In this document: piece after piece, positions 9,103 to 34,742 of the stretch
Layout of the letters: each line of letters begins with the position of its first letter
Position numbering within the stretch: position 1 is the stretch's first letter
From: Reclinomonas americana ATCC 50394
Lineage: Eukaryota
Assembly (NCBI GenBank): GCA_048213135.1
Contig: PS015490.1
Span: 24,622-59,363, forward strand
Length of the DNA: 34,742 nucleotides
Direction: 5' to 3'
Notes under the pieces: model-generated
Database searches by the model: none
The model's input: the letters and a program-made list of their open reading frames with translations, nothing else
What the model was told of the DNA's origin: nothing
Made by a program: the position numbers and the translations under genes

Positions 9103-10779
9103 TTACTGCTGCTGCTCATCGCTGTAGGTGGCATCGCCTTTGACGGTGCCGCCGTGGCTGTTTTGCGTGTAGACGTAGAAGCCGCGTGAGCTCTTCTTGC
9201 CCAGGCGACCGGCTCTCATGTATTGCACGAGGAGAGGATCTGAGTGCGTGCACACGTGGTGTCAGACAAGGCAGACTTCAGGCGTGCGGGTGTGCGTGGT
9301 TTCGACGCAACGAGGGCGGTACTTGGCGTCGGCAGTGTCGGCCCACAGTCGTCGCATGACGAGCACGCATGTGTCGATGCCAATGACGTCGGCCAGCTGC
9401 GTGACAATGGTCAGATCAGGCCGCGGTTGCACTACTCACTGTGCTACACTGACCTCCAGCGGACCGAGGGAGCTTCCCACTCCAAACCGCAGCGCGCGAT
9501 CAATGTCCGACACGGTGGCCACACCCCTGCGCCACGCGTGTCCAAACGCAGTCAGATCAACACCTACCCACATGCTTCCCCATATCATGTGTTCGCCACG
9601 CAACTCAGACACCATTTGCACCGCCTCGTTGATCAGCGGCATCATGAGGCGGAAAATGACAAAGCCCGGCGAGTCCTTGGAGAGCACGGCCACCTGCGAG
9701 CGGCAAAAGCATCAGCGTTCAGCGCGCAGACGAACTCAAAATTACACGCGCCGCCGCCCCTCCCACCTTGCCCATGTCGCGAGCCAGCAGCTTGACAGAG
9801 TCCACCGTCTCGCCCGACGTGTCGAGGCCTGGAATCAACTCAACCAAATCGTTTGCTGGTATATTTGCAATCGATATATGAGCTCCTCCTCCACCTTCTC
9901 CCTTCCCAAGACGACCCAGCAAACGCAACTCGGCACCGGGTTCAGGAAATGCAAGCCCACCACGCGTCGCGCTCGATCCGGCACCCACGACGCCACCTCG
10001 GTGATGCTCAACGACGAGGTATTCGTCGCCAGCACCGTCTCCATCGGCAACAAGCTCGCCAGCGTGATCAGCACATCGCGCTTCACTCGCGCATCGTCCG
10101 GCACCGCCTCAATCACCAACTGCGACGAGCGCAGCGCCGAGTACGTCTGCGTGGTCACAATACGCCCCATGGTGGCCTCGCGCTCCTCCTCCGACAGGTT
10201 GCGATAGGTGACTGCGCGATCCAGATACGAGCGGATAAAGCGGATTGAGTGCGTGCAGGCCGCCTCTGACGTGTCCATCAGCGTCACTTGCCTGCGCACG
10301 CACGTCAGAAGGCACAGACGGAAGGAGCGAGGGAAGGAAAGGACGAAACTTTTTCGCGTTCAGTGCCAATACGATTGCGATTCCAGTGCCCACTGTGTCT
10401 GTGTGAGTGCACAGCAAGAGAGAGGGAGAGAGGGCGGGAGTGTGTGCGTGTGTGTGACTCAACTCTGCCCTGCGCCCACGACTGCCACATTGTGCACTGT
10501 GCGATCAGTGTCGCCTGCAGTGTCCGCGGATTCTGACGACTTGTGAGAGCGCGAGTGGTGTGTGCCCTTGTTGTTGTTGTGGTTGTTGTTGTGCGAGGCT
10601 GTGGGCGACTTGGAGGCCTCGGCGGCGAACCAGCGCGCAGTGAGCAGAGACTGCATTGTGTGTGAGTGAAAGAATGAGAGTGTGTGCGAGTGTGTGAGAG
10701 AGAATGTGCGCGTCACCTGCAGGCCACTGCTGCGTGGTGTGGGGCGGAAGAGAAGGCGACTCAGCGTTGCTGTTCTCAT
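9103..10779 (-). CDS. Mitochondrial 3-hydroxyacyl-CoA / 3-hydroxybutyryl-CoA dehydrogenase family protein (9 exons)
   Basis: The spliced product gives VAVVGAGQMGTGIA, LATNTSSLSIT, GLHFLNPVP, KDSPGFV, GPLELADVIGID, KYRPHPLL and GRLGKKSSRGFY, with an Arg/Ser-rich presequence. Confidence 0.93.
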
Positions 10780-14688: not shown

Positions 14689-15994
14689 TCACAAAACCCC
14701 CGCGAATCCGCGACGACCCGCCGCAGCACCCGGTGACGACGGTGATTCGGCTGCGGCGCTGGCAGTTGTGGTGGTGGTGGTTGTCGTCGTTGCGCCTGCC
14801 ATGCTATCCCGGCCACTGATCGGCGAGTACAGCGCATCCAGCAGCTCGGCCACGGTGATGCCCATCTGTGACTCGACCGAGGAGGCACCGGAGACTCGAA
14901 TGGCCTCGGCCAGGCGATCCTCACAGTCTCTCCGCCGCGCGTACACAATCGCCTGCTGGATGCTGCGACTCCACTCGCGCTGATCCTGCTCCGACTCGCC
15001 ACAAACGTAAAACGTCCGCTCCAATCGCCCGCCGAGACTCGGACCGGCGCCAACCTCGGCTGGTCGAACAGCCGCTTGCACGTGCAGCGCAAAGCAGTGC
15101 TCCTGCGCGGGGGAGGAGTGAGTGAGCGGGGGGAAGGAGAGCTTGGGAAAGGGAGGGAGACAGAGGCGCGTACCCGTCCCACAGTGCCACAGACGAGCGC
15201 ATCCTTGCCGACGCCATCGACAAGGTGTGGTGCGGAGAGGCATGGATCCTCCAATGAGTCGGTGTGGTCGCGCACTTGCCTCTGCGGTTCCACTTCATAC
15301 ACCAGCGATTTCTCGCCGACCACATCCTCATGCGCGTCGGCCCACCTCTCATCTCGCGACGCCACCGTCTTGCACCAGCAGCCGGTTTCGATGAGAATGG
15401 TGGAGATGGGTGAGTCCTGCGCAGGCACGGTCAGCGAAACACAAATCACGTTGACGACGAGAAGCAAAGGCACGCAACATGCGGGCTCTTCTGGTACGTC
15501 AGTGTGTTCTCGTGCAGGTGGAAGAAGCGACGCTGCCATGAATCACGCCCGAACACACCTGGCAGGCGGAGGAGCAATGAGTGTCAAAGTGGATCGCATA
15601 CGGCTCTCTCGTAGACGCGAAATCGACCACGCTGCATCAGCCATCTCTCTCTCTGTGCTGCCTCGCTCACTCGAAGGAGCAAAAAGTACGTGACAAGCTG
15701 GACGACGGGGAACAAAGCAACGTCTTGACTGCAGCACTCGACCAGCACATCGTCTGGTTCGCTGCGACTCACCCTTCTTGTGACCGAGCTTATGCAAGTA
15801 CCCCGTCATTGGTGCCGGTGGATCCGCAGGCAGTGGAACATAGCGAACGCCCACCAGTCGACGAGTAAAGTTGCCACGGGAGACACTGACGCACGAGAGA
15901 ATGATGAGCGCTCGGAACTCGCAGATGATTGTGCGAGGAAGAGATATGAGAGAGAGAGAGAGAGAAGGATGCGTCAGAGTGTGCCTGCGTCTGT

Positions 15995-16036
<42 letters not shown>

Positions 16037-16352
16037 GTGACCGACCGGAGTGTGCTCTTGTTAAATCGCTGCACTGTGGTTCCATCGCGCAATCGAATGG
16101 TGCTTCTCACATCCGGATCAACCCAGTCCGGCTGCATTCCAATGAGAAAACACACACACACACTGACACTGACACACACTCAAGCACACAACAAACCACA
16201 TACTGAACACACATGCAATCAATGACTTGTGTGAAGAAGCACACGGGAAATAGGTAAGAAAAGGCAAGACTTACAGGCGCGGGTGGCGACGGTGGCGCTG
16301 CAGAACTCGCCTGCGCCGCGAGCTTGGCAGCGCGCTCCTGGTACGCCATCAT
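14689..16352 (-). CDS. PH-domain protein (single PH domain with a long internal insertion)
   Basis: Spliced product MTGYLHKLGHKKGVFGRDSWQRRFFHLHENTLTY ... EHCFALHV ... RTFYVCGESEQDQREWSRSIQQAI; 6 exons. Confidence 0.85.
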
Positions 16353-16532
16353 ATATCAAAACAAAAAACGAAAGGACCGGAGGACAGATGAAGGACCGTC
16401 CACACCAATTAGTCGACAGACTCACACGCGCGCACTTCTTCACTCTCTCTCACACACACGCACAGACGCACTCTCTCCCTGTGTGTGCGTGTGCGTGAGC
16501 GAGTGGACGCACGTAGCACAGTACATCCATCA

Positions 16533-19500
16533 ATGCGTCGTCATCATGTGTGTGTATTGCTCGTCATTGTTGCGCTGTGTGCTGTGTGGAGTGCCAGCAC
16601 AGCAGGTATGTGTCACTTTCTCACACACTCTCTCCTCCACACACACACACTCACACACGCATTGTGAACATGTGATTGCGAGAAGTAGACAATACATCCA
16701 TATTCGGCGATGCTCACTCTCTCTCTCTCTCGACATAGATGCCGCCACGTCGCTGAGCTTTCTACCGTACACACCAGTCCGCACAACGCTGACTACAGTT
16801 ACGCCTTCTTCTTCTTCCCGCTCTTGTTTCCCAGCTCACACACAGAACAGCTCTCGCGAACGGTGACTGCCGCCTGTCGATCGTCCGTGTCGGCGACTAC
16901 CTCGGGCATTCTGGTGGAACGCTGGTCAGGGCAGAGTGGAAGTCTAGTGGCCAATGCCAAGTTGCGTTTTTCTCTTTGTTTGATTGGTGTCCTCCCTGTT
17001 GGTATTCTCATCGACGTTACCTTGACCTGAGTAGCTTCTCCGGCACTCCATCTACGTGCTTTGCATTGACGTCGTCGTTTTCGTACTCGACAACCAGTGT
17101 CGGTGAGTTGTTTTTGCTTCGTGTGCCACCGTGCGGTCCACTGATTGAGTGTGGCATGCAGCCAACACATCCACACGGCTGACCGCATTCCTCACGATAC
17201 CCACCGACAGCACTTACAATGTGCGTCATGGGGTCTCGTCATGCTCTGTGTACTGTGTGTGTTCGTGACTGACTGTGTGTTGACGTGCGGCACAGTTCTA
17301 CATGACGTGTAACGACGCCTGTGATCTGTACATCAGTACCACCGGCGATGTGGCCGGTCTCACGAAGGTGGCCAGTGTCGCCACTGGAGTCGCTGATGGA
17401 AACCCTTCGTTTCGAATTCTATCTTCTCTCTGTCTCCCCCACACGTTCACTTGCTGACACATTGGCGTTTGTTGCAGATGGAATCCAGTGCCATCGGCCG
17501 TCTCCCCAGCATACACACTCTCCATCAATCAAGTGATTCTCCTGCAAGTTCTCCACAAGGCACGTTAACGCTGCGCTCGCGAGGTGCGTATCTCCTTTAC
17601 ATTCTTCTCACAAGTATGATGTGCGCGGGCAGAGGGGACCTGGCGGGTCAACAACGCATGTGAGGTATGCTCTGTGCTGTCGACATCTGTCTCCACACAA
17701 TGTCTCCTGACGTGCCACGCGCGCACACACAGTATCGGCTGGAAGTACGGCAGCAACAGCATCGCGACGATTCCTGCTTCACCGTGTCTGGTGGGTGTCG
17801 TTTTCTGGAAGATCATTGGCGGTGCCGATGCGGTGAGTAAGTCTCCACTTTTCGTGTCAGATTTCCACCGACTCGCCCATTCTGACGCCGCTTCATCGCG
17901 CAGGCCAAATTCCTCATAGCCGGCAACCTGCTGCAAGCGAATCAGCTCGGTGGTCTGCGCGGCGACCCGGTGACCATGAACCCCACGTTGGTGGTCACGG
18001 TGCAGGGCGACGACCTCGGCTCCACACCGACCACTGCGTCGTTCAGCTTAACCGAGAGTACGTGATCGCACACTTCAATCCTTCCGCTCACTCTCACGTA
18101 TCCGTCCTCATACTGACTGCCTCGTGCTGCACATCACAGCACCTGTCCCACCGTGGAATGTGCGCCTGCTCACCCGCGACTTCCCCATACCGGCGCCGGC
18201 GTATCCCTACGTCATTACGCAGATTGCAGCTCGTGACGACAACTGCTGCGAGACGTACACGTTTGATATCACGGACAATGCCGGTCAGCCGCTCACTATC
18301 AGCGGCAACCAACTCATCCTCACTGCGATGCCGACAGCATCAACTTTTTCTATCAAAATTCGCGTCACGGATTCGAACGGCTTAGATCTTCAAGTCACGC
18401 AAGCGGTAAGTTTGTGCGTACGTTGACATGGCGCGCCACTCTCGCGTGCTCATTCCTTCCGTTTCTGTGCTACAGTTGAATCTGTTCAGCAATCTGAGCC
18501 TCAGCAACCTCACTTTTACACCGGGAGCCGTGGCTCCGACTGTGATTGGCACGGTGTGTGTTTGTGTATTAGAGTATGACGATCACCGGCAGCGTATATT
18601 TTCTCACCGTCTGCTTTCCAGCTTTCCTATACCTACTCAGGCAATTCCAACAGGAGTCCGACGAGCACTAAAGGCGTGTTGCGCGAGCGTTGGGAGACGC
18701 TCCGTGGACCAAACATTGTCAGTGCCGATTACGCCTCAGTGCCGCTCAGCACGACGAGCGGTACTACCCAGGTGGCCATTCTCACCTCCTCGACTCCACT
18801 CGAATTTCTCACGAATGACGGCGGTATGGCACCATGTCGCCTGACTGCAAGCTTTTTTGGCAGTTCTTGTCGCTCACCACACCACCACCTCCTCTCGTCA
18901 GACAATTACGCCTCGCGACTGTCGGCATACGTCACCATTCCGTCCACCAACACGTACACAGTTGCGCTTCGCTGCGCATTGCCATAAAGTGCAGCAGCTG
19001 CTCACCGTGAACTCTCGTTGCATGCAGTTTTGGGTGGCTGGCGACGACGAGACCGAGTTGTTCCTCAGCACCACCTCGAACCCGGACGACTTGGTGCAGG
19101 TGGCCGGTGTGCCGCCCAACAGCTACTCCAACATTGGCGAGTTCACCAAGTTTGCGGCGCAAAAGTCAGCTGCATTCAGCTTCACCGCCGGCCAAGTGAT
19201 TCTCGTCGAAATTCGCCACAAGGTGACAGGGCAACATTCCCCGCACCACCGTGCTACCCACACGCACTTAACGCATCCATTCATTTTTCGCAGGAAGAGG
19301 CTGTCAACGATTTCGTGCAACTGCGCTGGTCGTACCCACCCAACGCCTCTACACCGGTCAGCATTCCACTGTCGGCATGCGACCCCGCCACCGCCTATTA
19401 CCGCATTGTCGCCGGTTTCGACGGCTCGCTATTCACCATGCAGGGCAGGCAGCTGGTGATCAAGTCGACCACTGGTATCACTGGTCCCACACGCAAGGTC

Positions 19501-22500
19501 ACCATCCAGGTGGACAACAGCCAGGCCAGTACGTCGTCCCAGACGTTCACGCTGACGGAAAGTGCGTCAAGAGTGGTGTCGTCGGGGAGGTTGGGTGTGC
19601 CACTGTGTCTGACTTGCCAGCGCACTTTTCAGTCAACGTGGCGCCGACGAGTATCGCACTGACGTCGTCGACCTACGTGCCACCGGCAACCGCCGGTGCT
19701 CTGGTGGGATCCTTGTCGACCACCGATGCCAACATCTCCGACACCTTCACGTATACCATCACTTCCAGTACGCCTTCTAACGCGTTCACCATTGTCGGCA
19801 ACTCGCTAAAGATCCGAAACGCCGGGCAAACCGGCTCCTTGAGTGTGCTCGTGCGCAGCACCGACTCTGGCGGTCTCTTTGTGGGGCGCACTTTCTCAGT
19901 CACGGAATGTGAGTTGCTGGTCGCATTCCGCCGAGTGCTGGATTAGAAGCTGACAATTGCGCAGCCAATGTCCCGCCCACCAACCTCATATTTACGAACG
20001 CCGTGATGGGTCTGGCCAACAACGTGTATCCGATTCCTATGGTGATGAACACGGTCATCGGCACCGTCAGCGCCAGCGACGCAAACACGGGCCAAACGCT
20101 GACGTACAGCATCACTGGCGGCACCGATGCTGCCAAATTTTCGCTCGGCGTCGACGCGAAGCTGCGCTGTCAGGTGGCGAACCTCACGGGCGACAATCTG
20201 CAAGTGATTATCACCGTCAGCGACGGAGCTGGTGGTTCTCTCTCGCGCACATTTACTTTTAGCGAAGGTTACGCCGCTGTGTTGAGTGTCTCGGTTTCAT
20301 GGGTTGCTTGACTTATACTTGTCGATGTGTTTGAAACAGTCAACGCGGCGCCAACGGCAGTCACCCTCTCGGCGTTGACGTACATTCCACCACTGGCTCT
20401 CAGTGCCGTCATTGGCAATCTGGCCACCACCGACGCCAACTGCTGCCAGACATACACGTACACCATTGTGGGCGGCACCGACATGACCAAGTTCTCCATT
20501 TCGGGCACGCAGCTGATCAACACGGTCAGCGGCTTGCGTGGCGATCCGCTGGAAGTGATTGTGCGGTCGCTGGATACTGGTGGTGCATCGGTGTCTGGCC
20601 GCTTCCTGATCACGGAACGTGAGTGCACTTGGCTGTTGTGCACCTGGTCACTCGTTGTCGTTGTCTGACTGCGTGTGTGTACATGTGGCAGAAAACCTGG
20701 CACCCACCGCCATCAACCTGAGTGCACTGACCTATGTGCCGCCGAGTGTTGCCAACGCGGTCGTTAGCGCTCTGTCGACCACCGATATCAACACTGCTCA
20801 GACGTTCACGTACTCGGTTGTGTCCAGCACGCCGGCCAGCATCTTTACAATTTTCAGCGGACAACTCTCCTTCAGCAGCGCCGCGCAGATGGGCTCACTC
20901 ACAGTGACGATTCGTTCCACTGACAATGGCACACCACCGCTGTCGGTAACTCAGTCGTTCACCATCACCGAGGGTGCGCTGCTTTGATTCCCCGTGTCGC
21001 CGTCTGACATTTGTCGCTGATGGCCTCTCTCTCTCTCTCTCTCTTCCTCTACCTACAGCTAATGTTCCGCCGAGCTCGCTCACCGTTTCCACAACCACGT
21101 ACCAGCCTCATCTCGGGTTGGGTGCCACAGTGGCCACGCTGGCGGTCATTGATGTCAACACGTCGCAAACCATCACGCTGTCCATCACTGGCGGCACAGC
21201 TGCGAGCCAATTCAGCATCAGTGGAACCGTGCTAAAGTCGGCCGTCTCTGACCTCTTTGGCAACAATCTGCAAGTGATTGTTCTTGCTGACGACGGTGCC
21301 GGTGGTCAGCTGTCGAAGACATTTGTGTTCAATGAGAGTTGCGTGCCTTGACAGAGAGTGAGTGCTACGACCATCTTTGTTTGCTGATGCTGTAAGCAGT
21401 CAACACGACGCCGACCGACATTCTGCTCTCGGCGACCTCGTACGATCCCATCATGCTGCCGAGTGCCGCTGTGGGCACTCTGTCGGCGGTCGACGCCAAC
21501 ACGGCACAGACGTATGTGTTCTCCATTGTGCCGACCGGCGACGCAGCGTTTTTCAGCATCAATGGTAACCAGTTGACGGCCGTCGGACCCACCGAATCCT
21601 CGGTGCCACTGTCGCTCACTATCAAAGTCACCGACAATGGTTCCCCGTCGGCCACGTTCACCAAGACATTTTCCATTAGCACCAGTGCGTTGCACAGTTC
21701 ACTGTGTTCATGTGTGCATTTGTTGCTCACCGCTACTCGCAGCCAACTATCCGCCGACTGGTCTTGCGCTGTCGGCCAACACGTATGTACCGCCGCTCAC
21801 GATGAACGCCGTTATCGGCACGCTTTCGGCCACGGACGTCAACTGCTGCCAGACGCTGACCTACTCCATTGTGGGTGGCGCTGACGCTTCCAAGTTCAAC
21901 ATTTCTGGCAACAAGCTGCGCGCCAATGTGGACCCGTTTACCGGCACCGGCCTCAGCGTGATGGTTCAGGTGTCGGACGGTGTCGGTGGCACACAGACAC
22001 TCACGTTCACTATCTCCGAAGGTGTGCCTCCCAGCATTCGTCTCGCCTTGCTTCGATGATACTCATGCAGTCGTCGTCGTCGTGCAAACAGTGAATGTAG
22101 CGTCGACCAGCCTCACCCTCAGCTCCACCACATTCGTGCCGCCGACAGCAGCCCCGAATCAGGCGATCGGCACGCTGGCCACGGCTGATATCAATTGCTG
22201 CCAGATCTTCACATACACCGTGGTGGGAGGCACCAGTGCGTCACTGTTTACAGTGGTCGGTGGCAATCAGTTGGCATTCCGTGCTGCCGCACAGCGTGGC
22301 AACAACTTGCAGGTCACTGTTCGCTCGACTGACGATGCGGCATCACCGTTGTTTATCGAGCAGACATTTGTCATTAGCGAAGGTGAGAAGCGTGCGGCAA
22401 TGATGTGCATCATTTTTGCCTTTTCCATTTTTCTCATCGCTTTGCTGCGAGCAGTGAATCTGCCACCAACGGACATTGCGCTGTCGGCCAACACGTACGT

Positions 22501-25500
22501 GCCGCCAACTGCTGGTGCCAACACCGTCGTAGGCACGCTTACCACTGTCGACGGCAACACCGTGGACTCGTTCCACTACGACATTGTCGGTGGCGCTGAT
22601 ATGGCGCTCTTTGGTGTGCTCGTCGACACGCTGGTTCTGCTTCCCGCTGGTCTTCGTGGCACCGGCTTCCAGGTCGTAGTGCGGACCACCGATCGCTTTG
22701 GTGTCACGTTTGATAAGCTGTTTGTCATCTCCAACAGTTGCGCCTGCGATGCAGTCTCTTTACCGTGGATGTGTGTGTTCTCGTCGCTAACTGCAAGTGT
22801 CTACAGGCAATGTGTCTCCCACCGATATGCTGCTGTCGGGCAACACGTACACACCCAAGTCGGCACGCGGCAACCAAGCAGTCGGCGTTCTCTCTGTACT
22901 CGACGAGAACCTGACGGACACGTACACGTTTGCCATCACGGGTGGCGCCGATGCCTCCAAGTTCAGTATCGTCGGTCGATCGCTTGTCATTAGCGCACCG
23001 TTCACCACCGGCACCGGGCTCCGCGTGTCGGTGACTGGCACGTGCATTGCGTCAGGGGACGTAATCGTACGATCGTACATTGTCAATGAGAGTTTCGTTG
23101 ACGAGTGCGATTACTTGTGTGTGCACGCTGTGGAGTACTTACAGTGCACACGCACAGGCAATGTGATTCCGACAGCCGTGCTGCTGAGCAACACGGCGTA
23201 CGTGCCGCCCGGCCTGCCGGCAACACTGCTGATTGGCAACCTGTCGACTGTAGACGACAATTGCTGCCAGACGGCAACGTACAGCGTCATCGGTGGAGCT
23301 GATGCTGCGCGCTTTTTCGTTGCCGGCGACGTGCTATCTCTTCGCTACACCACGGCTATTGTCAGCTCGTTGCAAGTCATGATTCAGACCGACGACGGCG
23401 CCGGTGGTGTCTTCTCCGACACGTTTACCATCTCTGAATGTGCGCGCAGCGTCATCTGTATTCGTGTCTCGGGTGGAAGTATCCTTTCTCATCATATCCC
23501 TTGTTTTTTTGCACCCACAGCTAACGTGCAGCCGACCGACATTCTGCTGACAGGCCTGTCGTACGTACCGCGCAGCGCCAACAACAACGTGGTCATTGGC
23601 ACATTGTCGTCGGTGGACTCCAATGTCGGTCAGGGCCACACGTATTCCATTGTCGGCGGCGCCGCGCAGGCTCTCTTTGCCATCACTGGCGACGACAAGT
23701 TGACGCTCGTGCCATCGAATGTTACAGGCGATCCGCTTGTCGTCACCGTGCGCACGACTGACGATGATGGATTGTCATTCGACAAGACATTCTCCGTTGC
23801 CGAGGGTATGTATGCTTGCGCAGAGAAGACTGGTGGTGCCGTTGCTGACTGTCTGCTGCATCATCCCCGCAGTGAACATGCCTCCGACTGATGTTCAGTT
23901 GGCTCCTGGAACGTACTCGCCGCCGACGACGTCGCCAAACACCATAGCGGGCACGCTCAGCACCACGGACGACAACTCGGTTGAGTCATTCACGTACTCG
24001 GTGGTTGGCGGCATAGATCGGAGTCTCTTTACGATTGTCAATGGCAACCAGCTGGCGCTGGTGAGCAGCGGACAGCGAGGCACCGGCCTGGCCGTTGTCG
24101 TGCGAACAACAGACTCGGGAGGGGCGTCGTTTGACAAGTTCCTCACCGTCAATGATGGTGCAATGTCACTGTAGCAGTGAGATGCTGGAGATATTCGCCT
24201 CTCATTGTTTGTCTCTTCCATTCGCTGCAGTTCCGGTGCCGCCGACAGGCGCCACGCTCTCTGGCACGTCGTACAGTGCACCAACTGTCATCCCCAACAC
24301 GGCGATTGGCGTGGTGTCTGTCGACGATCCCAATACGACCGACACATTTACTTTTGACATTGCTCCTGGACCAAATGCTGTTGCGTGGACTGTCTACGAA
24401 TGCGCGACGCTTGTCTGCCTTGTTTTTGACTCTTGTGTTGTTTGGGTGTTTCGCAATAGGCGCTGTTCGCCATGGTCGGCAACCAGCTCGTTTTCACACA
24501 AGTGGGTCAACGCGGCGAGTTCGACGTGTCGATTCTGGTGACCGACGCCAGTGGCAACACGATCACCAAGAGTATTCGCGTGACGGAAGGTTGCCGCGTT
24601 GGACATTGTTATCCGTCTCTTGCTGTTCTTGCTCACTTGCTGTTGATAGCACACGTGCTGCCGACCGACATGGCACTGAGTTCGTTGACGTACGATCCGG
24701 GACTGGCAATGGGCGACACTGTGGCCACAATCAGCACATCACACAACAACTGCTGTGTCAGCATCGTGTACACGATTGTCGGTGGAGCCGATGCGGTGAG
24801 CTTGGATTGAGGGGAGTGCCTCTCATAGTCAATTCACATCCTCTTACTCATCGCACGTTGACAGTCCAAGTTCAACATCAGTGGCGGTGACAAGCTTGTC
24901 TCAAATGTGGCGGCACTGCAGGGCAACAATCTCGAAGTGCGGCTGCAGACCGACGACCAGCAGGGCGGCGTGCTGCAAAAGACATTTGTTCTCTCCGAGA
25001 GTTCCGACGCCGCGATCTTCTGCAATCTGTGCCTGGAAAACCGCACTCACTCGCTCCTTTTGTACGATCCGCAGAGAAAGTTGCGCCATCGGCTGTGCGT
25101 CTCTCGAACTTGACGTACACACCGCCGACAATGTCGGGCAACGTGGTTGTTGGCGCGTTGTCGTCGACCGATGTCAACTGCTGCGACACATTCACGTACA
25201 CCATCACTGGTGGCGCCAATCGCACTCTCTTCAATATCTCCGGAGCAAGTCTGCGACTCGGTGCTGCGGGCATCAACGGCGATCCGCTGGTGGTTGCGGT
25301 TACCTCCACTGACCCGGGCGGCATGTCACGCGAAGTCACATTCCTCATTCGCGAGAGTTGAGTGACAGCTGTCTTGTGCGTCTTATTGCACGTGGAGTCT
25401 CATTGCTTGCACAGACAACGTGGCTCCCACGGGTGCGACAATCTCGCCGACGCAGTACAAGGCACCGTTGGCACGCAACGGTGTCATTGGCACCATTCGT

Positions 25501-28269
25501 GCCATCGATGCGAACTGTTGCCAGTCCTACTCCTACACTATTGTCGGCGGCGCTGATATGGTTTGCGCAGCGCATTGCCATTCTCTGAATCCATGGGGAG
25601 AGTGTACTGACACAGGCATGCAGGACAAGTTTGTGATCACAGGCAGCGAGCTGCGCAGCAAGGTGGACGGTTTGCGTGGCAGCGGCCTCAAGGTCGACGT
25701 GTCAGTGAATGACGGACTCGGTGGACAAGTTGTGGCCACTCTCATAGTGGACGAAAGTGAGTGTGGAGTGAGTGATGCAACTGTTCATGGTCGGAAATCA
25801 CTTACGCTTCATACTGCTGCTGCAGCACCGCCGCCACCACCAACCGTGGTGCTGGTTCCTGGCGTGGCTGCGGCACCGCCAACGGGCACGTCTGCTACGG
25901 CAGTGGTGTATGCCAACTCTGGCAACTCCGTCACATGGACTGCAGAGGCTGCGGCAAGTGACAAGGTCAACGTCGAACTGTGGATCTCGAATGGAGGTGA
26001 GTGTCAGAAGAGGAGGGGCGAGGTGAGTGTGTGCTGCTTGTGCCTGACGCGGTATCACAAAAGGCGGCATGTTTACGAAGCAGTCGACACTGGCCGCTGC
26101 GATCGACAAGAACTTGTCGTCTGCGGCGCTGGATTCCACGCTCAAGGGGCTGCGCGGACAGGTCTCTAGTGACACTTCACTGCGTGTGGTCGTGACGGAT
26201 TCTGCGTCGTCCAACGTGGTCGGCACCACTGACACATTCCTGCTGCACTGTTGCGTCGAGCAGCAGAGGATGGCTGGGGGAGTGTGCATTTCTTACTGAG
26301 AGTGCTTGTCGGTTGCAGTCCCACGTGTGGCCAGTGCCGTCGCCTCTGCGGCCACCAACAGCACCGTGACCACTGTTTCCAAGCGTGATCCGGTGGATGT
26401 CAGCTGGATGTGCGACGCACCGGCGCGCGTCGCCAACTTTACCATTACGGTGAGCACGCGTCTCGCTTTCTTTATTGGTGTGCATCGCTCTTTGCTTGTT
26501 GCTTAATGGCCGTGCCTCTTTCTGCCCGCAGTTGCAACAACGAACAACTACCAGCTCGGGCGAGTTCGTTTCCGACGTGGCGCAAGTGGCCTCGGGCGTG
26601 TCGGGCTCCTGTGCCGTCCTGTCGGGAACGACCATTACACGGAATCGACCTATTCCCGACGAGTGGCGCTCACTGACCGGAAGCAACACGCACAGGCTCA
26701 CACTTTCGGAGATTGCGCGTCTGCCAACTCTCTCCAGCAACGTTGACTACCTGTACACGGTGTCGCCAACAGACGACGACCCGTCGCTGTATGACGTGCA
26801 GTCGACTGGCACATTCCGAATCACGGGTCTGTCGATCACAACATGTGTCGACACACACGAAAGCACTGCCGACTGACTACTGCTTCTGTCCTCTTCACAG
26901 ATGGCAGTGGCTCGGGTTCAGGGACGAGTAGCACTCTCAGCGCATCCTCGTGCCCGTCGTCGCTGTTCTGCTGGTACTGGTTGGCGCTGATTGGCGTCGC
27001 TGGCGCCTGTGCGCTGATGACGCTGTTGTGCTGGTGCCTGTTTGCGGGTTATCGGCGCCGCCGACAACCGTCGCGCGACAAGGGCGCTCTGCGCACCGTA
27101 TCGTTTTGCGCCTTCCTGTTCTCGCCGCGACTGTGGTGTGCGGGCACCGGTGTCGCCAAGTCGTCGCTGGCGAGCACAGCCAAGCCGGCTGCTGCTGCTG
27201 CTTCTGTACCTTCTCCTGCGAAGTCGGCTCTCGCCGATTCGCAATCTGCCTCGTGGACGCCACCGCAACTCACCACGATCGACATGCCGTACATGGGTGA
27301 TGTGCCGGTCGACGCGCCGTTGGTGAGCGTTTTCAATCCGCTGCATCTCAACGGACCTCCACCACGGCGCCAGCAGCACAGCATGGTTGACGATGACGAG
27401 CAAGGCTCTTCCAGTGCTCGTGTGCAGTCGACATCCGTGTCGTCGGTGCAAGTCGATTTTGATGACGAGGGTGCGCCGGCCGTCGAGTACGTGGAACCAG
27501 CACCGCCAGCTCCGCAGTTCAAGTGGGACAAGTACCGTGGCGTTGGCAGCATGCTTTTGCGGCCGCCACCGCCACCGCCTGTTGCCGGCTCACAAGTGCC
27601 CATGGTGCCATTGCGCGCGACGACGCCCACCGCATCGCCGCGCTCGGTCACCATCCCCATGTTGAGGCTGCCGCTGGCAGGCCCCTCGCAGGTGAGAGAA
27701 TAGTGAGATGGAGCGCGATGTGAGACGTGCACTCATTCATCCACGCACTTTCAGCAATCGCCTCCGTCGAGCATCACGCTGCCTCGACAATTCAGTCCGC
27801 AGGTGCGAGATATTTGTCGTTGCCTCGCGATTCCACGTCGACCCTCACCTGGTTGTCTGCACAACTGCAGCCGTTCACGGCTCCCGTCGCTCCGCCACCC
27901 ATGCCTGGGGCTCGTTGGCCCGCTCCACCTATGGTGCCGATGCTGCGCTTGCCGCAGGTGTGTACTATTTTGTCGATGCTGTCCGCATGTTCGATGCATT
28001 CATCACACGCGCGTCATTGTGTTGCAGGGATCGCCGCAGCTGATGCCCATGCGCTCACCACCGCCGCCAGGATTGCCCATGTCCGCCCCGTCCAGCCCGC
28101 GTGCGCATCATGTGATGGCACGTGTGCCCGTCACAGTGCCACCGCTGCAGGTGTGTGTGTGTGTTCGCCACCCGTGCCGTTGTCGTTTTCAGTCATTGAC
28201 ATTGTTCACCACCGCCAGTTGCAGCACCTGTCGCCGCCACCACAATCGTCGCCCCGTAGCGCTCGATGA
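16533..28269 (+). CDS. Giant type I membrane protein: signal peptide, ~20 cadherin-like repeats, two nested PA14 domains, two further beta-rich domains, one TM helix, Pro-rich tail
   Basis: Signal peptide MRRHHVCVLLVIVALCAVWSASTA. The ~93-aa repeats have consensus NxxPTxxxLSxxTYxPP..VIGTLSxxDxN..TYTYSIVGGxDxxxFxIxGxxL..VxVxxxDxxG..FxIxE. PA14-like segments lie at ~16900-17790 and ~18670-19390. TM WYWLALIGVAGACALMTLLCWCLFAG (26972-27049) is followed by YRRRR. More than 40 exons join in frame. Confidence 0.88.
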
Positions 28270-28365: not shown

Positions 28366-31300
28366 CTACTTGAAGGTCGTCTTGGGGGCCTTGGCTAGGT
28401 ACGGCTCGTACCACAACGGAACTCTACTAGCATTAGTGGTGGCTGGATCGTCGGCCAGAGACAAGAGGAAGGACTCCATGTTGCCTCGTTCGTGCAGCTC
28501 GGCGTGCTTGACCGGCACATGTTTGATCAGCCATTTCACAGATTGGACCATGAAGGCACCTGCGCGGATACGAGTCAACAACTGGAGAAAGAAACACACA
28601 CAACTCGAGCGATACTCACCGGCCAGTTGGCGCCGTTCCGACACTGAATTGGTGCGCACTTCTTCCTCCAACGCCGGCGCCTGCCATATCATTTGATACA
28701 GTGCAGCCGAATTCTGAGAGGATGGGGAGAAAGACATGCAGGTGAGCAAGAGTGCGTCAGAGAGGGCAGAGTGCGCGGCGGCGGGTGCGCAACTTGCATC
28801 AGCACCGGAAGCGAGTCGGGAGCCACTGTCGGCGACACGGCCAATTGCGACATCTGTGTGCGCCCACTCGGTTAGTTTCACGACATCGCACGTGGGGAAG
28901 AGTCACAGAAAACAAACAACTCACCAAATGATTCTTGCACGCCTCCAGCAGCGGTTCCAGCTCCTCGCGGTAGTCTGTCTCGCAATGAGTAACTCACTCG
29001 GAGGAACTCACGCAGGAAAAAACAGCCAGACCCTCAAACACTTCGTCTGCGTGTGCGAGCCAGTGTGCCAACCACTTGTCGGTAGCCTCCAGGTACGCCG
29101 ACAGCATGGAGTACTCCCACGTACTGTTGTTGTACTTGTGCAGATCCATCGGCACAAAGCCAGTGGGCGACAACGTGGTCAGCGGATGCAGAGAATCCTT
29201 GCACGCCAGCCACCAGTCGCTCTCTGGCGGCGGCTCTGCGTCGCGCGTGAACAGCTTTTGCGTCAGACCAAAGTCGACGATGCGGAAGCGAGACTCGATT
29301 TCCTTGTCGTCATCAACTGGTACCCGTGGGAGCACAGTGAGACGAATGCAATCCACGGGTGCCGACAAAACATACAGTCATCGACGCACCACCGTGGCGC
29401 GTGACGTAGATTTCGGGGAAGCGCTTGCTGTTTGCCACCAGCACGTCCAGCACATTCGCGCCGACATCTTCGTCCCACTCGGGCAGCTGCGGGAACACCA
29501 AGTCGGGATACATGTGACTCAGTTGCCGCACATACCACCCGTGTCGAAGGAGTTCCTGCACCGGACGCGCAGATTAGGGAGTGTGGGGTGATACGTGCAC
29601 TGGGTGATAGTCAACGTACATAGTCAATGATTTTTACGTCGCTGCGATGACCGAGGACGAACTGCACGTAGCGGAGGACGTAGCAGTACACATCGCCCTG
29701 TTTGTGCGCACGGAGCAAAGTGAGCATGAGCAGACAATGAGAGCAAGAGCGAGGGGGAAGCAGCAGGAATCAGACGGGCCTTGCTGAGGAGAATGGCATT
29801 GGCCGGCAGCGGACGCAACACTTCCTCGCCGTAGCGCTGGAGGAAATCGTTGTTGGACTACACACAATCACACATCATCATCAGCTGCAGCGACACCAGC
29901 GACGAATGCCACCCAGAGACTCTCTCACCAGATCGGCCGCGGGGTAGCGATACACCACCACTGCAAGCACGGCGACGAGGAGAATGAGCCGTGCAGCACG
30001 AGAAGCACGGCGGGTACCGATGCGACCCAAGGCCACGGACACGGCGTGGATGCCAATGGCACTGAGGACGGCCATCAGCAGGTCGGCTTGCATCCAGAAG
30101 CGGCTGGACACGGCGGCCACTGCGAGAACGATGAGCGTGGGCAGAGAGAGAGAGAAAAGCAGAGATCATGGAGAAAAAACGCAACACAGTGGATCCTCCA
30201 GCGACAGATTGGCGAGACTGTGGAACACCACAACGTACAGGGCCAAACTCAGCAGGAACGGCGGCAGCACCAGCCGCGCGACACCATGAGTGAACGTTTC
30301 CTCTTCCTCGCCGGCCGCAGCTGCCGCCTTTTTCTCGGCATCCTTTTGTCACGGTGAGACGCGACAGTGTACACACACACACACACACGCATACACATGG
30401 TGGCATGCAACAATACCTGCGACTTGCGTTGCGACGAGCGTCCTTGCTGTGCGTCACGCACACTGGACCACAACCCGTAGCCGGCGCCGACAATGAGCAG
30501 GAACGGACCCAGATAGAGCGTGAATTGCAGTGTGTGCCGGAAGTACGCCGTCAGACCGATCAACAAGTTGGGCTTGGCATCGACGGCGGCCAGCTGGAAC
30601 GTGCCATAGTCGGAGCGCAGCAGGTGGCGCACAAAGCCGACAAGTGTATTCTGTTCGCCTGTCAGAACCCAGCAGTCAGCAACAACCATTACTGCTATTC
30701 TCCTGTCAGCATCGTCGCGCACGCAACCCCATGAGTGTGGCGGTGAGTTTGACGCCGCAAGCGGCAGATACAGGTACGGCAGCATGCCCACGGCGACAAG
30801 CACGATCAGCGTCGGCACGGTGCTGAAGGGCGCTCGTCGCAGCCGCGCACGCAAGCACCACAGCGTCCACAGCGCCAGCGGCACAATGTACAACACCGAC
30901 GTGTGCTGATTGGTGAGCGCCAAGCCCGACACCAACGCGCCCCACTTTGCCGCACTCCACACAACATCCTCACGAGCGGCGAGCGACGCCCGCGCCACAT
31001 ACGTGACCAGCAGCAGCAGCAGCGCCACAAACACATGATTGAGCGCAAACACCTCAAACACCACCGCGTGCGTCCACACCAGCGGACTCGCCGCAAAGAG
31101 CGTCGATGCCACAATCGACGCCACTGCATCGCCGCCCGTCACCAGCAAGCACACGCGACACAGCAGCGCAGCCGCCACCGCACCCAGCATTGCATTGAAG
31201 AGATTGGCGGCAAAGGCCACAGAGGTCTCGCGGATCGGAAGCCACGAAGTCACCACGCGAAGAAGCAGAGTCGCAGTCGGATAGCCGGGAGGATGAGCGA

Positions 31301-31673
31301 CCGCACCCGCAGACGCTGTCCAATCACTCAGCACGCGGAAATGCAATGCACACACACTCACTTCTCCTCTGCCTCTCTCTCTCACACACACACTCACACA
31401 CTCACCTGCAACAATGAACTCGCCACTGTCGCCTCCACCAACTGTGCGCTGCGTCGTGCATGCATACACAAGCGCAACAACAGCGCCCACCAGCAGCGCC
31501 CATTGCCAGCGAGAGGCCAGCGAGGCCGTGTGACCTGTGCTCACACTGGGAACACCGCCACGCATGTGAGAAGAGAGAAGAGAGTGAGTAGGGCCGAGTA
31601 GAGATTGGCAGTCCAATCCATTGATCGTGCGTTGCGTTACGTTTTGTGTTTGACGAAGCAGGTGAGCGCGCAT
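28366..31673 (-). CDS. TMEM260: TMEM260/DUF2723-family GT-C protein O-mannosyltransferase; start codon uncertain (31565, 31673 or further upstream)
   Basis: Family hallmarks GGDSGE, VAHPPGYP, EVFALN, GLALTNQHT, PYLYLP, HLLRSDYGTF and LPANAILLSKGD..LRYVQ, plus many hydrophobic helices. Confidence 0.88.
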
Positions 31674-31854
31674 CGCAGCACAGAGAGACACTCGCACACA
31701 GAGAGCAGAGGCACACACGCTGGCTGTGTTTGCGCGTGCGCTGACCAAGTGTGCGTGACATTGCGCAGTTTTTCCTTGTTGCGATGGCGGACTTTTCGAC
31801 TGTTGCGTCTCTCTCTCTCACACACACACGCACGCGTGTGTGTTATGTAAGCTC

Positions 31855-32661: not shown

Positions 32662-34252
32662 TCATTTGTCGGTCTGCACGTTGTTGTCCAGCTGGCGGAA
32701 ATGCGAGAAGAACGCGATCATGAAATCGCGATAGTACTTCACATCTTCCACGCCGCACATTTCGCGAATGCTGCAGGATTGCGCGCAGTGAGAGAGCCAA
32801 CCCAGCTTTTCTTTCTCTGCACGCTTTCTCACCTGTGCATCGACAGCTGCGGCACGCCAATGTCCACCGTGCGCACGCTCGTGTTGGTCGACAGAATGGG
32901 ACCAATGGTCGAACCGCACGCCATGTCGTTGCGGACGACGAACTCTTGGCACGGAATGTTGACACGGCGGCAAATCTCGTGCACCACGAACGCCGTCAGT
33001 GCATTGGTCGCGTACCGCTGGTTGGCGTTGGTCTTGACGACCACACCCGAGTGGATGTTGGGTCGGTGCTGCGCCTGGTGCTTCTCCCTGTTCGAAAGTG
33101 GGGAGAGGATGAGTGGTATGAAGAAAATTGCTGCTGTTGCTTCCGCAGTGAGCGCAACTGGTAGTTCGGGTGCACACCGTGTGCCATGTCGGCACTGACG
33201 ACAAAGCTGCGTGCGAGACTCGACTCCACAAAGTCCTGCACCGACAAGTCAGCACGAGAACGTAACACAGACGATGGTAAGAAGCGCACCGCCGGCACAT
33301 TCTTGACATTCTCGCGCACGACCTCGTTGAAGCGATTGAAAAAGTCCTGCGCATGCACGACAAGGGTGAGTGCATTGTTGAGAGCACCTGGTTTCCTCCC
33401 ACCAACATCGCCTCACCTTCAACAACGACGACGCGGCGCCTGCAGCACTTGAACTGCCGACCTCCTCATTGTCGAACAGCGCCACCACGTGCACATCGGT
33501 CGACGAGGCCAGCGACTTGGCCACCTCGTCCGACGCCAGAGCCTGCGAGCAAGCAGCACAGTGAACGAATGTACGGTGAGTCGCGCACGCTCCGTCTGCA
33601 ACAACGCACCTCAATGGCACAGAAAGACGACAGGAGATTGTCGAGACGGGGCGAAAAGATCCATTCCTCCAGCGCACCGCCAATCACGGCGGGCTGGGTA
33701 TCGCACACGTCCAACTCAAAGTCACGAATGTTCTTGGCTGATGGGTGCCCCACGTCAGCAGTCACACGAGAACAGTTCATGGGTTCACATCACTCTCACC
33801 GTCAACGTTCAACTCGCGCGCCAGCAACTCCAACAGCAGTCCGTGATGCGCCGCAGTGCCCGAATCCGCCGGCTTGCCAGCCAGTCGACTGTCGCACGAA
33901 CAAACAAGAGGGGAAGTGACACATGAGTGAAACCATGAAGATCAGACACAGCCTCTATCAACTGTACGCAACGCCTGCATCTCCGACGCCAGCACCGGGA
34001 TGAGGTTGCCCTCCTTGTTGTACTTGAAGTTCTCCGTGGCCTCACGATCCAGATGGATAGCAAGGCTCGGGATTCGCATAATCGGCCGCTTGATGTGCAC
34101 CAGACGCGACTCAAACTTGCCCTCGGTCTCCACCAACACGCGACCGCCCAGCGTCAGATCGCTACACACGCGCACACGATTGAAAATGGATGAGGAAGAA
34201 GAGGCGTAGAAGCCACGCTGAGCCGTGAACTCACCGATCGAACCACGTGTGC
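32662..34252 (-). CDS. DNPEP: Aspartyl aminopeptidase, peptidase family M18; 5' part missing beyond the contig end
   Basis: [71 protein letters not shown] and QLSMHSIREMCG. Confidence 0.95.
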
Positions 34253-34524
34253 CTGCAGCATGCAACGGGGCAGTGAGCAGATGCGGAAGGGTGACATGCA
34301 GACTCTTTCTTTCTCGCGTGAGAGTGAGATAGAGAGCGAAACGGAAAGGCTGTCATGCACCGTTCTCCTTCTCGTGAAAGAGAGAGAGAGAGAGTGAGCA
34401 GAAACGGGAAGGTAGACATGTTCCTTCTTTCTTTCTCTTGAGAGAGAGCAGCACAGCAAGGCTGTCATGCAATCTATTTCTCGTGTGAGAGGGGGAGAGA
34501 GAGAGATAGACAGACAGAGAGACG

Positions 34525-34742
<218 letters not shown>

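Follow-up and report, generated by a model that had tools for sequence, protein, structure and literature searches.

Results

Gene structure

Positions 16533–28269 of the window (the whole stretch of 34,742 nucleotides that was analysed) hold a single eukaryotic gene, rich in introns, which encodes a very long, predicted cell-surface protein. Table 1 collects its features. Before splicing, all three frames of the forward strand are interrupted across this region. After splicing, a frame of 8577 nt (2858 aa) without internal stop was obtained, from an ATG at 16533 to a TGA ending at 28269. These limits match exactly those proposed in the first-pass annotation of the same DNA, and the length falls within its estimate of about 2800–3000 aa. 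GT..AG borders were found at 43 of 43 introns, which measure 56–240 nt (median 70). The acceptor trinucleotide is CAG in 39 cases, TAG in three and GAG in one; 25 introns are in phase 1, 15 in phase 0 and three in phase 2. Judged by the compact gene spacing and the 70-nt introns, a non-animal host is plausible. About 2 kb from the receptor gene is a gene for a TMEM260-like O-mannosyltransferase.

The exon joins were picked by hand, with the repeat pattern as guide, and for this reason confidence in the model is lowest at the first PA14-like domain. The uncertainty lies in its small exons, which include one of 25 nt (17635–17659), and in the 3′ end of the gene, where the choice of the last acceptor is ambiguous, as is the status of two possible in-frame introns.

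The order of parts in the spliced product is signal peptide, two PA14-like domains, repeats, two Ser/Thr-rich segments, one transmembrane (TM) helix and a tail. Hydrophobic peaks were observed at residues 6–24 and 2516–2545, with one further marginal peak within a repeat. Ser and Thr make up 24.6% of the ectodomain, which has 27 N-x-S/T sequons.

Table 1. Features of the predicted receptor gene, in window positions
Feature	Position	Strand	Details
Whole gene, 2858-aa type I membrane protein (predicted)	16533..28269	+	44 exons, 43 GT-AG introns
Exon 1, start codon and signal peptide	16533..16605	+	Kyte-Doolittle peak 2.42, residues 6–24; donor GTATGT
PA14-like domain 1	16846..17790	+	exons 2–8, residues ~26–198; core TYNFYMTCNDACDLYI
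C-terminal half repeat after PA14-like domain 1	17791..18057	+	piece 17904–18056, profile positions 50–93, E 0.062
Full divergent repeat and N-terminal repeat fragment	18140..18553	+	18140–18405, E 4e-12; 18476–18553, E 0.19
PA14-like domain 2	18622..19380	+	exons 12–15, residues 380–560; core TYTFWVAGDDETELFL
C-terminal half repeat after PA14-like domain 2	19381..19561	+	piece 19336–19560, E 1e-6
Stalk, 17 full cadherin-like repeats of ~93 aa	19633..25756	+	repeat profile
PPPPP linker and two Ser/Thr-rich membrane-proximal segments	25826..26844	+	residues 2227–2494
Transmembrane helix LFCWYWLALIGVAGACALMTLLCWCLFAGY, then RRRRQ	26963..27052	+	hydrophobicity peak
Cytoplasmic tail, 313 aa, 20% Pro	27053..28269	+	spliced model

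PA14-like domains

When the two N-terminal domains were compared by phmmer, they were found to be homologous to each other (E 3.8e-18 over ~160 residues, with 51 identical of 172 aligned). The pair of distal PA14 domains described in the first-pass annotation was thus recovered, with the assignment of both heads to PA14/GLEYA (PF07691, PF10528) made from the core motif only, over ~35–55 columns. This motif, Y.T.P.tG.YtF...sDDg..L.i, aligns with verified PA14 domains, and hhalign gave 92.7% (P 4e-7, 35 columns). A profile of the two copies, run by hmmsearch on 152 proteins, had a sole match, the bacterial protein P0091 (E 1.1e-5 and 9.4e-5); the best match in a reversed-sequence control was at E 0.089. 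P0091 has two Pfam PA14 stretches (E 7.5e-28), and its first match to the profile (58–113) overlaps the listed Pfam stretch at 73–168. As a lead, Atlas gave GLEYA/PA14 as the top named clusters for exon 14 (score 0.87).

The Pfam scan of single exons gave no PA14 match, each domain being split over 4–7 exons. The core exon, searched by phmmer, had no match in a large protein collection and, in the PDB, matched only Ipomoelin (E 1.4). A ‘DcisD’ pair of Asp residues forms the Ca/sugar site of fungal PA14 adhesins. At the Asp pair position of the core motif, PA14-2 has GDDE (D-D) and PA14-1 has CNDA (N-D); the second loop was not located.

Cadherin-like repeats

With a profile made from five window repeats, every open stretch of the window was searched in all six frames. 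The profile matched 24 pieces, all on the forward strand between 17904 and 25740, and 21 of them, including the five seeds, had E ≤ 1e-4; the best match in the rest of the window was at E 2.8. The consensus, NVxPTxxxLSxxTYxPP....GTLSxxDxN..QTxTYSIVGG.....FxIxGxxL....VRxTDxxG....TFxIxE, contains all three patterns reported earlier (PTxIxLS, GTLSxxDxN and FxIxGxxL). The spliced protein has 18 full repeats (~93 aa) and three partial ones, namely a C-terminal half behind each PA14-like domain and one N-terminal fragment, so that the earlier count of ‘about 20’ is correct.

In the stalk, 14 of the 17 repeats are encoded by a single exon and the other three are interrupted by a phase-0 intron; the introns between repeats are in phase 1. 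The half repeat after PA14-1 also has a phase-0 intron behind GGADA, as in three full repeats. One repeat per exon with phase-1 introns is consistent with an array that grew through exon duplications.

The AlphaFold2 model of the repeat at 18142–18405 has seven strands and a pLDDT of 91.5. When this model was searched against the PDB by Foldseek, the list consisted almost entirely of cadherin EC domains (TMq 0.5–0.66), every E-value being ≥ 9e-3. Weak PDB profile matches of the repeats were cadherins or protocadherins in 12 of 14 cases. By these models, the repeats are predicted to fold as cadherin-type β-sandwiches, in line with the seven-strand Greek-key sandwich of about 100 aa that characterises the EC domain. 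In Pfam, the best score of a single exon for Cadherin (PF00028) was 14.8 bits (E 0.039), below the cut-off of 28.8, and open reading frames with two or three repeats gave nothing at E ≤ 0.01. Big_9 reached 20.7 bits at best, below its cut-off of 23.6, and Cadherin_4 had no match in the open reading frames or single exons of the window. No single exon of the gene matched any Pfam family significantly.

Calcium-ligand positions

Classical cadherins have three calcium sites between domains, two of which are formed by the XEX and DRE ligands. Ligand positions were compared in an alignment of the 18 window repeats and 14 Pfam-positive repeats of the bacterial protein P0001. At the XEX position, 10 of the 14 bacterial repeats have E or D; the window repeats have Pro in 14 of 18 and an acidic residue in none. 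The Asp of LDFE (DRE) is present in 13 of the 14 P0001 repeats; all 18 window repeats have a deletion there. Shortening of loops accompanies this loss of XEX and DRE in the window repeats. Other positions are retained: the D-x-D/N motif (D 17/18, N 18/18), the Asp of x-D-x (17/18) and, in the linker, E and N (14/18 each). A vicinal Cys-Cys adjoins the retained D-x-N in eight of the 18 repeats.

The window repeats therefore lack the full cadherin set (XEX, DXD, DRE, DXNDN). The calcium ligands named as absent in the first-pass annotation are indeed missing, but D-x-N, x-D-x and the linker E/N are retained. With about half of the ligand positions kept, the label ‘calcium-free’ is unsupported.

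Sequence relatives

When a 366-aa open reading frame of the window was searched against 1.84 billion representatives, 1729 proteins were obtained at E ≤ 1e-3. The nearest relatives of the repeats are bacterial cadherin-repeat adhesins (~31–38% identity). A single 92-aa exon matched P0001 at E 5e-68 with 38% identity; P0001 is itself a Pfam Cadherin protein (E 1.5e-84), whose N terminus weakly matches Planc_extracel, below threshold (22.6 bits against a cut-off of 25.5). All 14 repeats of P0001 align with the window profile over almost its whole length (starts 1–4, ends 91–93 of 93; E for single domains 3e-11 to 4e-20). Among the large top matches scanned, Pfam Cadherin was found in 14 of 14 and a bacterial secretion or anchor module (CHU_C, Por_Secre_tail, SLH, RTX repeats or dockerin) in 10 of 14, in keeping with the likeness to large bacterial surface proteins noted earlier. 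The median protein among the 152 proteins compared has XEX and DRE in every repeat. No close relative was found in the prokaryote reference genomes searched.

Three database proteins, P0092 (212 aa), P0032 (2199 aa) and P0075 (2014 aa), have the same derived repeat subtype as the window, in which TY.PP replaces XEX, with the same deletions and D.N. A wider TYxPP family therefore exists. P0092 shows 47% identity and has an intron-like in-frame insert between its repeats; P0032 has a signal-like segment at its N terminus. No PA14-like region was detected in the three with the PA14 profiles, nor any TM helix apart from the signal-like segment, and their C terminus is Cys-rich, unlike that of the window protein. 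For these proteins Atlas pointed, as no more than a lead, to clusters of eukaryotes (Euglenozoa, Oomycota). Their repeats were intermixed with those of the window in a tree of poor resolution, which suggests that the array is older than the window gene.

Membrane-proximal region and tail

The Ser/Thr-rich membrane-proximal segments gave no Pfam match, and the AlphaFold2 model of exon 39 by itself was poor (pLDDT 44). The TM helix and long Pro-rich tail proposed earlier are both present in the model. The tail has a PPPPPP run and carries PMLRLP twice; at the 3′ end it is encoded by four short exons, each with a final Q. Its 263-aa exon matched no Pfam family at E ≤ 1, and the catenin-binding cytoplasmic domain of classical cadherins, looked for by Pfam, was not found.

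Discussion

We favour, with a probability of roughly 60%, a single gene for a lectin-tipped type I adhesion or capture receptor with a cadherin-type stalk and a Pro-rich tail. From its sequence, the protein probably functions as an adhesin or capture receptor. The signal peptide would direct it to the secretory pathway, and the one TM helix with its basic stop-transfer sequence would anchor it. About 20 β-sandwich repeats of cadherin type, homologous to the repeats of giant bacterial adhesins, would make the ectodomain a long rod. A cadherin repeat is ~4.5 nm long, and at this length per repeat the rod would hold the PA14-like heads ~80–90 nm off the membrane. By analogy with the PA14 family, the heads most likely bind a glycan or other ligand at the surface of prey, of a substrate or of adjacent cells. 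The tail, with its PPPPPP and PxxP-type sequences, most likely recruits SH3-, WW- or profilin-type partners, and such partners, cytoskeletal or endocytic, would couple capture to uptake or traction. Given the ligand positions lost and kept, calcium would stiffen the rod via a reduced site at most. A more specific proposal, a eukaryote-specific family of prey-capture or phagocytic receptors with a stalk of bacterial ancestry working at little or no calcium, PA14 lectin heads and a cytoskeleton-wired tail, of which this protein would be the first full-length member, is put forward only tentatively and is rather improbable as it stands.

The ectodomain composition and sequons, the nearby TMEM260-like gene and a tail in which Pfam shows no signalling domain would also suit a structural coat or matrix protein of a glycocalyx, scale or wall layer, with PA14 cross-linking the cell's own glycans. 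However, gene neighbourhood is weak evidence in eukaryotes, and a conserved-looking 313-aa Pro-rich tail behind a stop-transfer TM helix exceeds the needs of a passive anchor; we consider such a role unlikely. It is most unlikely that the protein is a true calcium-dependent homophilic cadherin for cell–cell adhesion, as in animals or oomycetes. The cadherin-type fold, the distant cadherin profile matches and the retained D-x-N, x-D-x and linker E/N would agree with this, but no window repeat has an acidic XEX residue, the DRE segment is deleted in every one, the tail has no catenin-binding or other Pfam domain, and the tips are PA14-like with no EC1. The LDRE and DxND motifs with which oomycete ‘true’ cadherins are described (PMC2926784) are likewise absent from the window repeats.

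It might also be argued that the locus is not one functional gene but a row of neighbouring genes or a repeat array in decay, since the splice sites were hand-chosen with the repeat pattern as guide and automatic splice parsing was wrong at many places. Against this, the frame is intact over 43 uniform consensus introns with no stop in 8.6 kb, and the largest gap, 240 nt, leaves no room for a promoter or terminator. Moreover, the N-terminal model gives two full-length homologous domains, each spliced independently from different small exons, and the signal peptide and TM helix are confined to the two ends. We regard a multi-gene or decaying locus as very unlikely.

The single receptor that we favour resembles the bacterial giant cadherin-repeat adhesins (P0001, P0003–P0016 and P0091; CHDL type, with Cadherin, Cadherin_4 or Big_9) in end-to-end repeat homology and long tandem arrays. 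P0091 in addition has two N-terminal PA14 domains and cadherin repeats within one chain. The bacterial proteins are intronless and have bacterial export or anchor modules, whereas the window protein has introns, a signal peptide, a TM helix and a cytoplasmic tail; its repeats are also ~7 residues shorter and have lost both XEX and DRE. A bacterial origin with later intron gain and expansion was suggested in the first-pass annotation. The nearest repeats are bacterial, but the TYxPP subtype common to P0092, P0032 and P0075 argues against a recent, isolated transfer of this gene. The architecture was also called unfamiliar: our literature search found no paper describing it in a eukaryote, but the pairing of PA14 with cadherin repeats is not new, being already present in P0091.

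The adhesin MpIBP of Marinomonas primoryensis and other RTX adhesins are described as carrying a PA14 sugar binder on a long stalk (PMC5550230; 10.1101/2020.11.18.389155; PMC7493085). The likeness is one of working principle, a sugar-binding-type PA14 held far out on a stalk of β-sandwich repeats. These adhesins are bacterial, use type I secretion and have Ca-stiffened BIg-type repeats; the window protein is eukaryotic, is predicted to be a type I membrane protein and has cadherin-type repeats minus two ligand sets. It is not a member of this group. Fungal Flo/Epa/Cea adhesins are GPI or wall anchored and have low-complexity stalks. They too are eukaryotic surface proteins with an N-terminal PA14/GLEYA-type head, described there on a Ser/Thr-rich spacer (PMC6218569). 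The window protein differs in its two heads, folded cadherin-like stalk, TM helix and 313-aa cytoplasmic tail, and membership in the Flo/Epa group was rejected for its TM helix and tail instead of a GPI or wall anchor and for its stalk of folded repeats. Cadherin-type surface adhesion in non-animal eukaryotes is described for Trichomonas vaginalis CLP and oomycete cadherins (PMC6520450; PMC2926784), which resemble the window protein in having cadherin-type domains at the surface of a non-animal eukaryote. TvCLP function is reported to depend on its calcium-binding region (PMC6520450), and the descriptions consulted mention no PA14 heads for either (PMC6520450; PMC2926784).

As a sequence-level prediction, the finding carries moderate weight. 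If the model is right, it offers a testable case of a non-animal eukaryote building a very long adhesion or capture receptor from parts otherwise known from bacterial adhesins, namely PA14 heads and a cadherin-type stalk. It would also mean that selection can keep an array of cadherin-type repeats intact after two of the classical calcium-ligand sets have been lost. The gene bears on the debated origin of cadherin-like domains outside animals, and on the debate over the receptors by which protists may recognise prey or surfaces.

Gene model

Coding-looking pieces were spread across all three frames of the forward strand between 16533 and 28269, and the short gaps between successive repeats opened with GT and closed with AG. 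Such a pattern can be read as one heavily spliced gene or, much less probably, as a non-gene or several genes. A single model accommodated the locus in 44 exons (8,577 coding bases, 2,858 aa) with zero internal stops. All 43 introns were GT..AG and 39 of the acceptors were CAG. Intron length ranged from 56 to 240 nt (median 70), intron 1 alone exceeding 85 nt; 25 introns were in phase 1, 15 in phase 0 and three in phase 2. GC content was 59% in the coding sequence (GC3 70%) versus 52% in the introns. The first-pass annotation had placed a giant cadherin-like/PA14 receptor at this locus, and its two ends proved to be the start and the stop of the model.

A splice/codon model was trained on 17 clear introns; its dynamic-programming parse over-spliced, removing coding sequence and inventing tiny exons. 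Every join of the final model was hand-curated by eye on three-frame displays, and the model is uncertain at the small exons of PA14-like domain 1 (including the 25-nt exon 7), at two possible in-frame tail introns and at the last acceptor. Downstream of PA14-like domain 2, 14 of the 17 repeats are single exons flanked on either side by phase-1 introns. The remaining three are interrupted by a phase-0 intron that follows GGAD(A/M) or the corresponding PGPNA, and this intron is also present in the half repeat after PA14-like domain 1.

With 43 spliceosomal-type introns in the gene, bacterial contamination was rejected and the source is certainly eukaryotic; gene density and intron size make a non-animal source plausible.

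Domain architecture and genomic setting

In the predicted protein, a single TM helix lies between a cytoplasmic tail and a secreted ectodomain, the latter bearing two distal PA14-like domains and many folded cadherin-type repeats in a long array. The ectodomain contains 27 N-x-S/T sequons, and Ser and Thr make up 24.6% of it. Exon 39, a membrane-proximal segment, gave an AlphaFold2 pLDDT of 44 when modelled alone, too low for the model to be used. When the stalk-proximal region and the tail were compared with the fetched proteins by phmmer, no match was better than E 0.016. All of the last four exons of the tail are in phase 0 and end in ...P..Q, and there are two copies of PMLRLP; the tail looks like a product of short exon duplication.

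Features of the giant gene, its predicted protein (in order from the N terminus) and the window
Feature	Location	Strand	Remark
Giant gene	16533-28269	+	
Signal peptide	residues 6-24		hydrophobic core
PA14-like domain 1	directly after signal peptide		
C-terminal half repeat	after PA14-like domain 1		
One full repeat	after first half repeat		
Short N-terminal repeat fragment	before PA14-like domain 2		
PA14-like domain 2	after repeat fragment		
Second half repeat	after PA14-like domain 2		
Seventeen full repeats			stalk
PPPPP linker	after stalk		
Ser/Thr-rich sequence	after PPPPP linker		~270 residues, two similar segments
GSGSGSG spacer	before TM helix		
TM helix	residues 2516-2545		followed by RRRRQ
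Cytoplasmic tail			313 aa, 20% Pro
Cys-Cys repeats	residues 300, 848, 1223, 1317, 1603, 1979, 2074, 2167		e.g. DNA 20342-20617
Repeat-profile matches	17904-25740	+	
Possible tail introns	27098-27160, 27323-27376		in frame
Last acceptor	28192 vs 28224		
Tail, last four exons	27692-28269		
TMEM260-like protein O-mannosyltransferase ORF	30249-31817	-	Pfam E 2.9e-16
Neighbouring genes	9928-10275 (-) and others		
CA/TC runs, TYVR repeat	1-340, 34150-34742		window ends
CA/TC runs	15950-16700		

The genes nearby are intron-split too and of an ordinary eukaryotic housekeeping type; they encode two LRR proteins, 3-hydroxyacyl-CoA dehydrogenase, an NDUFV2-like ferredoxin, DnaJ and an M18 aminopeptidase. 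An exon of the dehydrogenase gave matches at 37-53% identity, none near-identical and the organism-named ones bacterial; the host proteome seems to be absent from the searched protein collection. On the opposite strand, about 2 kb downstream of the Ser/Thr-rich giant gene, lies the TMEM260-like ORF, which may be a coincidence. Rfam and tRNA scans found no RNA genes in the window. At both window ends there are long runs of CA/TC dinucleotides together with a repeat translating as TYVR, and more CA/TC runs occur upstream of the giant gene and within its intron 1.

The stalk repeats are cadherin-type, of bacterial kind

A profile built from five seed repeats, taken by coordinates, was run on all open stretches in the six frames of the window. 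It matched 24 pieces, all on the forward strand, with E ≤ 1e-4 in 21 (five of them the seeds), and its best match elsewhere in the window was E 2.8. The array is therefore real and confined to the giant gene locus.

Neither raw ORFs nor single exons reached a Pfam cut-off, the best scores being 14.8 bits for Cadherin (cut-off 28.8) and 20.7 for Big_9 (cut-off 23.6). A single 92-aa exon matched P0001, a database protein of 1,800 aa, with E 5e-68 and 38% identity. P0001 itself scores 1.5e-84 for Pfam Cadherin, and its N terminus matches Planc_extracel weakly, below the threshold; its 100-aa repeats, fourteen in number, all match the window profile almost end to end. When a 366-aa window ORF was taken through a full HMMER pass of 1.84 billion representatives, 1,729 proteins were matched at E ≤ 1e-3, of which 173 reached E ≤ 1e-30. 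Identity among the best 150 matches was 31-47%, and since the top value is 47%, the giant protein itself is seemingly absent from that collection. Pfam Cadherin was found in all 14 large top matches scanned, and 10 of them also had a module for bacterial export or anchoring (CHU_C, Por_Secre_tail, SLH, RTX repeats or dockerin).

AlphaFold2 folded one repeat, with an alignment of 15 window repeats, into seven strands at pLDDT 91.5. Foldseek matched this model in the PDB to cadherin EC domains almost throughout (TMq 0.5-0.66, no E-value below 9e-3), and 12 of the 14 weak matches of a PDB sequence profile search (E 0.006-0.36) were cadherins or protocadherins. The window repeats are cadherin-type, of bacterial kind. 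A limited, pattern-based scan of 185,579 prokaryote species genomes with one window repeat yielded 524 pattern matches and no close relative.

Calcium ligands and the Cys-Cys motif

The 18 full window repeats were aligned with the 14 repeats of P0001.

Cadherin calcium-ligand positions in the repeats of P0001 and of the window
Position	P0001	Window
XEX	E/D 10/14	Pro 14/18, acidic 0/18
LDFE (DRE) Asp	present 13/14	falls in deletion 18/18
Asp-rich G.GD.DN loop	present	three residues shorter
Strand before linker	full length	shortened by five residues
D of D-x-D/N	14/14	17/18
N (or D) of D-x-D/N	14/14	18/18
Asp of x-D-x	14/14	17/18
Linker Glu		14/18
Linker Asn		14/18

The repeats had been said at first to lack the xE/PEN and LDRE/DYE calcium ligands. 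This holds for the ligands so named, XEX and DRE, and other ligand positions are kept. In cadherin structures the latter belong to the third calcium site, and a reduced calcium site is for this reason possible in the window repeats. XEX and DRE are present in every repeat of the median protein among the 152 fetched, and eight of these proteins are ligand-poor. A true calcium-dependent homophilic cadherin is one rival reading of the gene; it has in its favour the cadherin-type fold, and tests of the calcium ligands and of the cytoplasmic tail led us to reject membership of the classical cadherins. Oomycete cadherins are reported to keep LDRE and DxND, unlike bacterial relatives (PMC2926784).

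In eight of the 18 full window repeats, the invariant D-x-N is followed directly by vicinal cysteines (D.NCC[QDEV]), which account for 16 of the 28 ectodomain cysteines. This D.NCC may form a vicinal disulfide that substitutes for a lost calcium loop. The motif also occurs in the first repeat of P0092, a database protein matched by the window repeats. A scan of the 185,579 prokaryote species genomes for DxNCC[QD][TI]xTY gave eight matches and no real carrier; its single tblastn 'relative' was read as chance (an 11-residue match, no listed ORF being cadherin-like).

The TYxPP subtype and the repeat tree

The derived form of the window repeats, in which TY.PP replaces XEX, was found with identical deletions in three of the 152 fetched proteins: P0092 (212 aa, 47% identical), which has two repeats with an in-frame, intron-like junk peptide between them, P0032 (2,199 aa, with a signal-like N terminus) and P0075 (2,014 aa). 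In Atlas, the clusters nearest to the C-terminal part of P0075 were ones recorded as eukaryotic (Euglenozoa, Oomycota; Cadherin_4/Big_9, score 0.94-0.95), a placement that we treat as a lead only.

A quick-method tree, built from 86 repeats aligned in 97 columns, was poorly resolved. A cluster of the 50 bacterial rows (SH-aLRT 87, not starred) excluded all 18 repeats of the three relatives and 17 of the 18 window repeats, w07 being placed inside it. The repeats of the relatives were interleaved with those of the window, so the repeat array seems, from these sequences, to predate the giant gene. One starred split (SH-aLRT 96) united 10 rows, seven from the window and three from the TYxPP relatives; in this poorly resolved tree, it suggests two old repeat subtypes.

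PA14-like heads

Both N-terminal domains are homologues of one another across ~160 residues (E 3.8e-18, 51 of 172 aligned residues identical), and their alignment along this length also speaks for the way in which the numerous small PA14 exons were spliced. Of the 152 fetched proteins, P0091 alone was matched by a profile made from both copies, and it was matched twice (E 1.1e-5 and 9.4e-5), the best value in a reversed-sequence control being 0.089. Two stretches of P0091 are assigned to PA14 by Pfam (E 7.5e-28; listed stretch 73-168), and the aligned segment is the PA14 family core, Y.T.P..G.YTF...SDDG..LYI. Profile-profile comparison gave 92.7% probability (P 4e-7, 35 columns). In Atlas, the clusters closest to the core exon were those of GLEYA/PA14 (score 0.87, with 175 features shared), and the 10 best family-bearing matches all shared one family or clan. 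The same exon gave nothing above cut-off in Pfam, no match in a word-indexed search of longer proteins, and in the PDB Ipomoelin only (E 1.4). As judged from sequence, the heads are best read as PA14/GLEYA-type.

P0091 is a bacterial-type protein of 3,575 aa with two N-terminal PA14 domains, at least 10 Cadherin repeats, CotH, LTD, Calx-beta, fn3 and PKD. It is thus a bacterial precedent for PA14 and cadherin in one chain.

Proposed working of the protein

The gene is best read as encoding a lectin-tipped adhesin or capture receptor. The repeat array would be a rod-like spacer about 80-90 nm long, holding out PA14-like heads whose ligands may be glycans or other molecules on the surface of prey, of the substrate or of other cells. 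The tail, with PPPPPP, the two PMLRLP motifs and several P-x-x-P, would recruit proline-recognition modules linking it to actin or endocytosis. A less probable rival is a passive coat protein.

Another non-animal cadherin-type protein is the cadherin-like adhesin of Trichomonas (PMC6520450), a case cited in a recent preprint that also mentions bacterial CHDL families (10.64898/2026.04.11.717937). In the open full-text literature, we found no description of a eukaryotic membrane protein in which PA14 heads and a Pro-rich tail are combined with a cadherin-like stalk of bacterial type. Every module of the giant protein is from a known family, and the pairing of PA14 with cadherin already exists in a bacterial protein. 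The Marinomonas ice-binding adhesin is reported to have a long stalk of repeats that bears a PA14 lectin (PMC5550230, 10.1101/2020.11.18.389155), and it is with this and similar bacterial adhesins that the giant protein would share a common principle.
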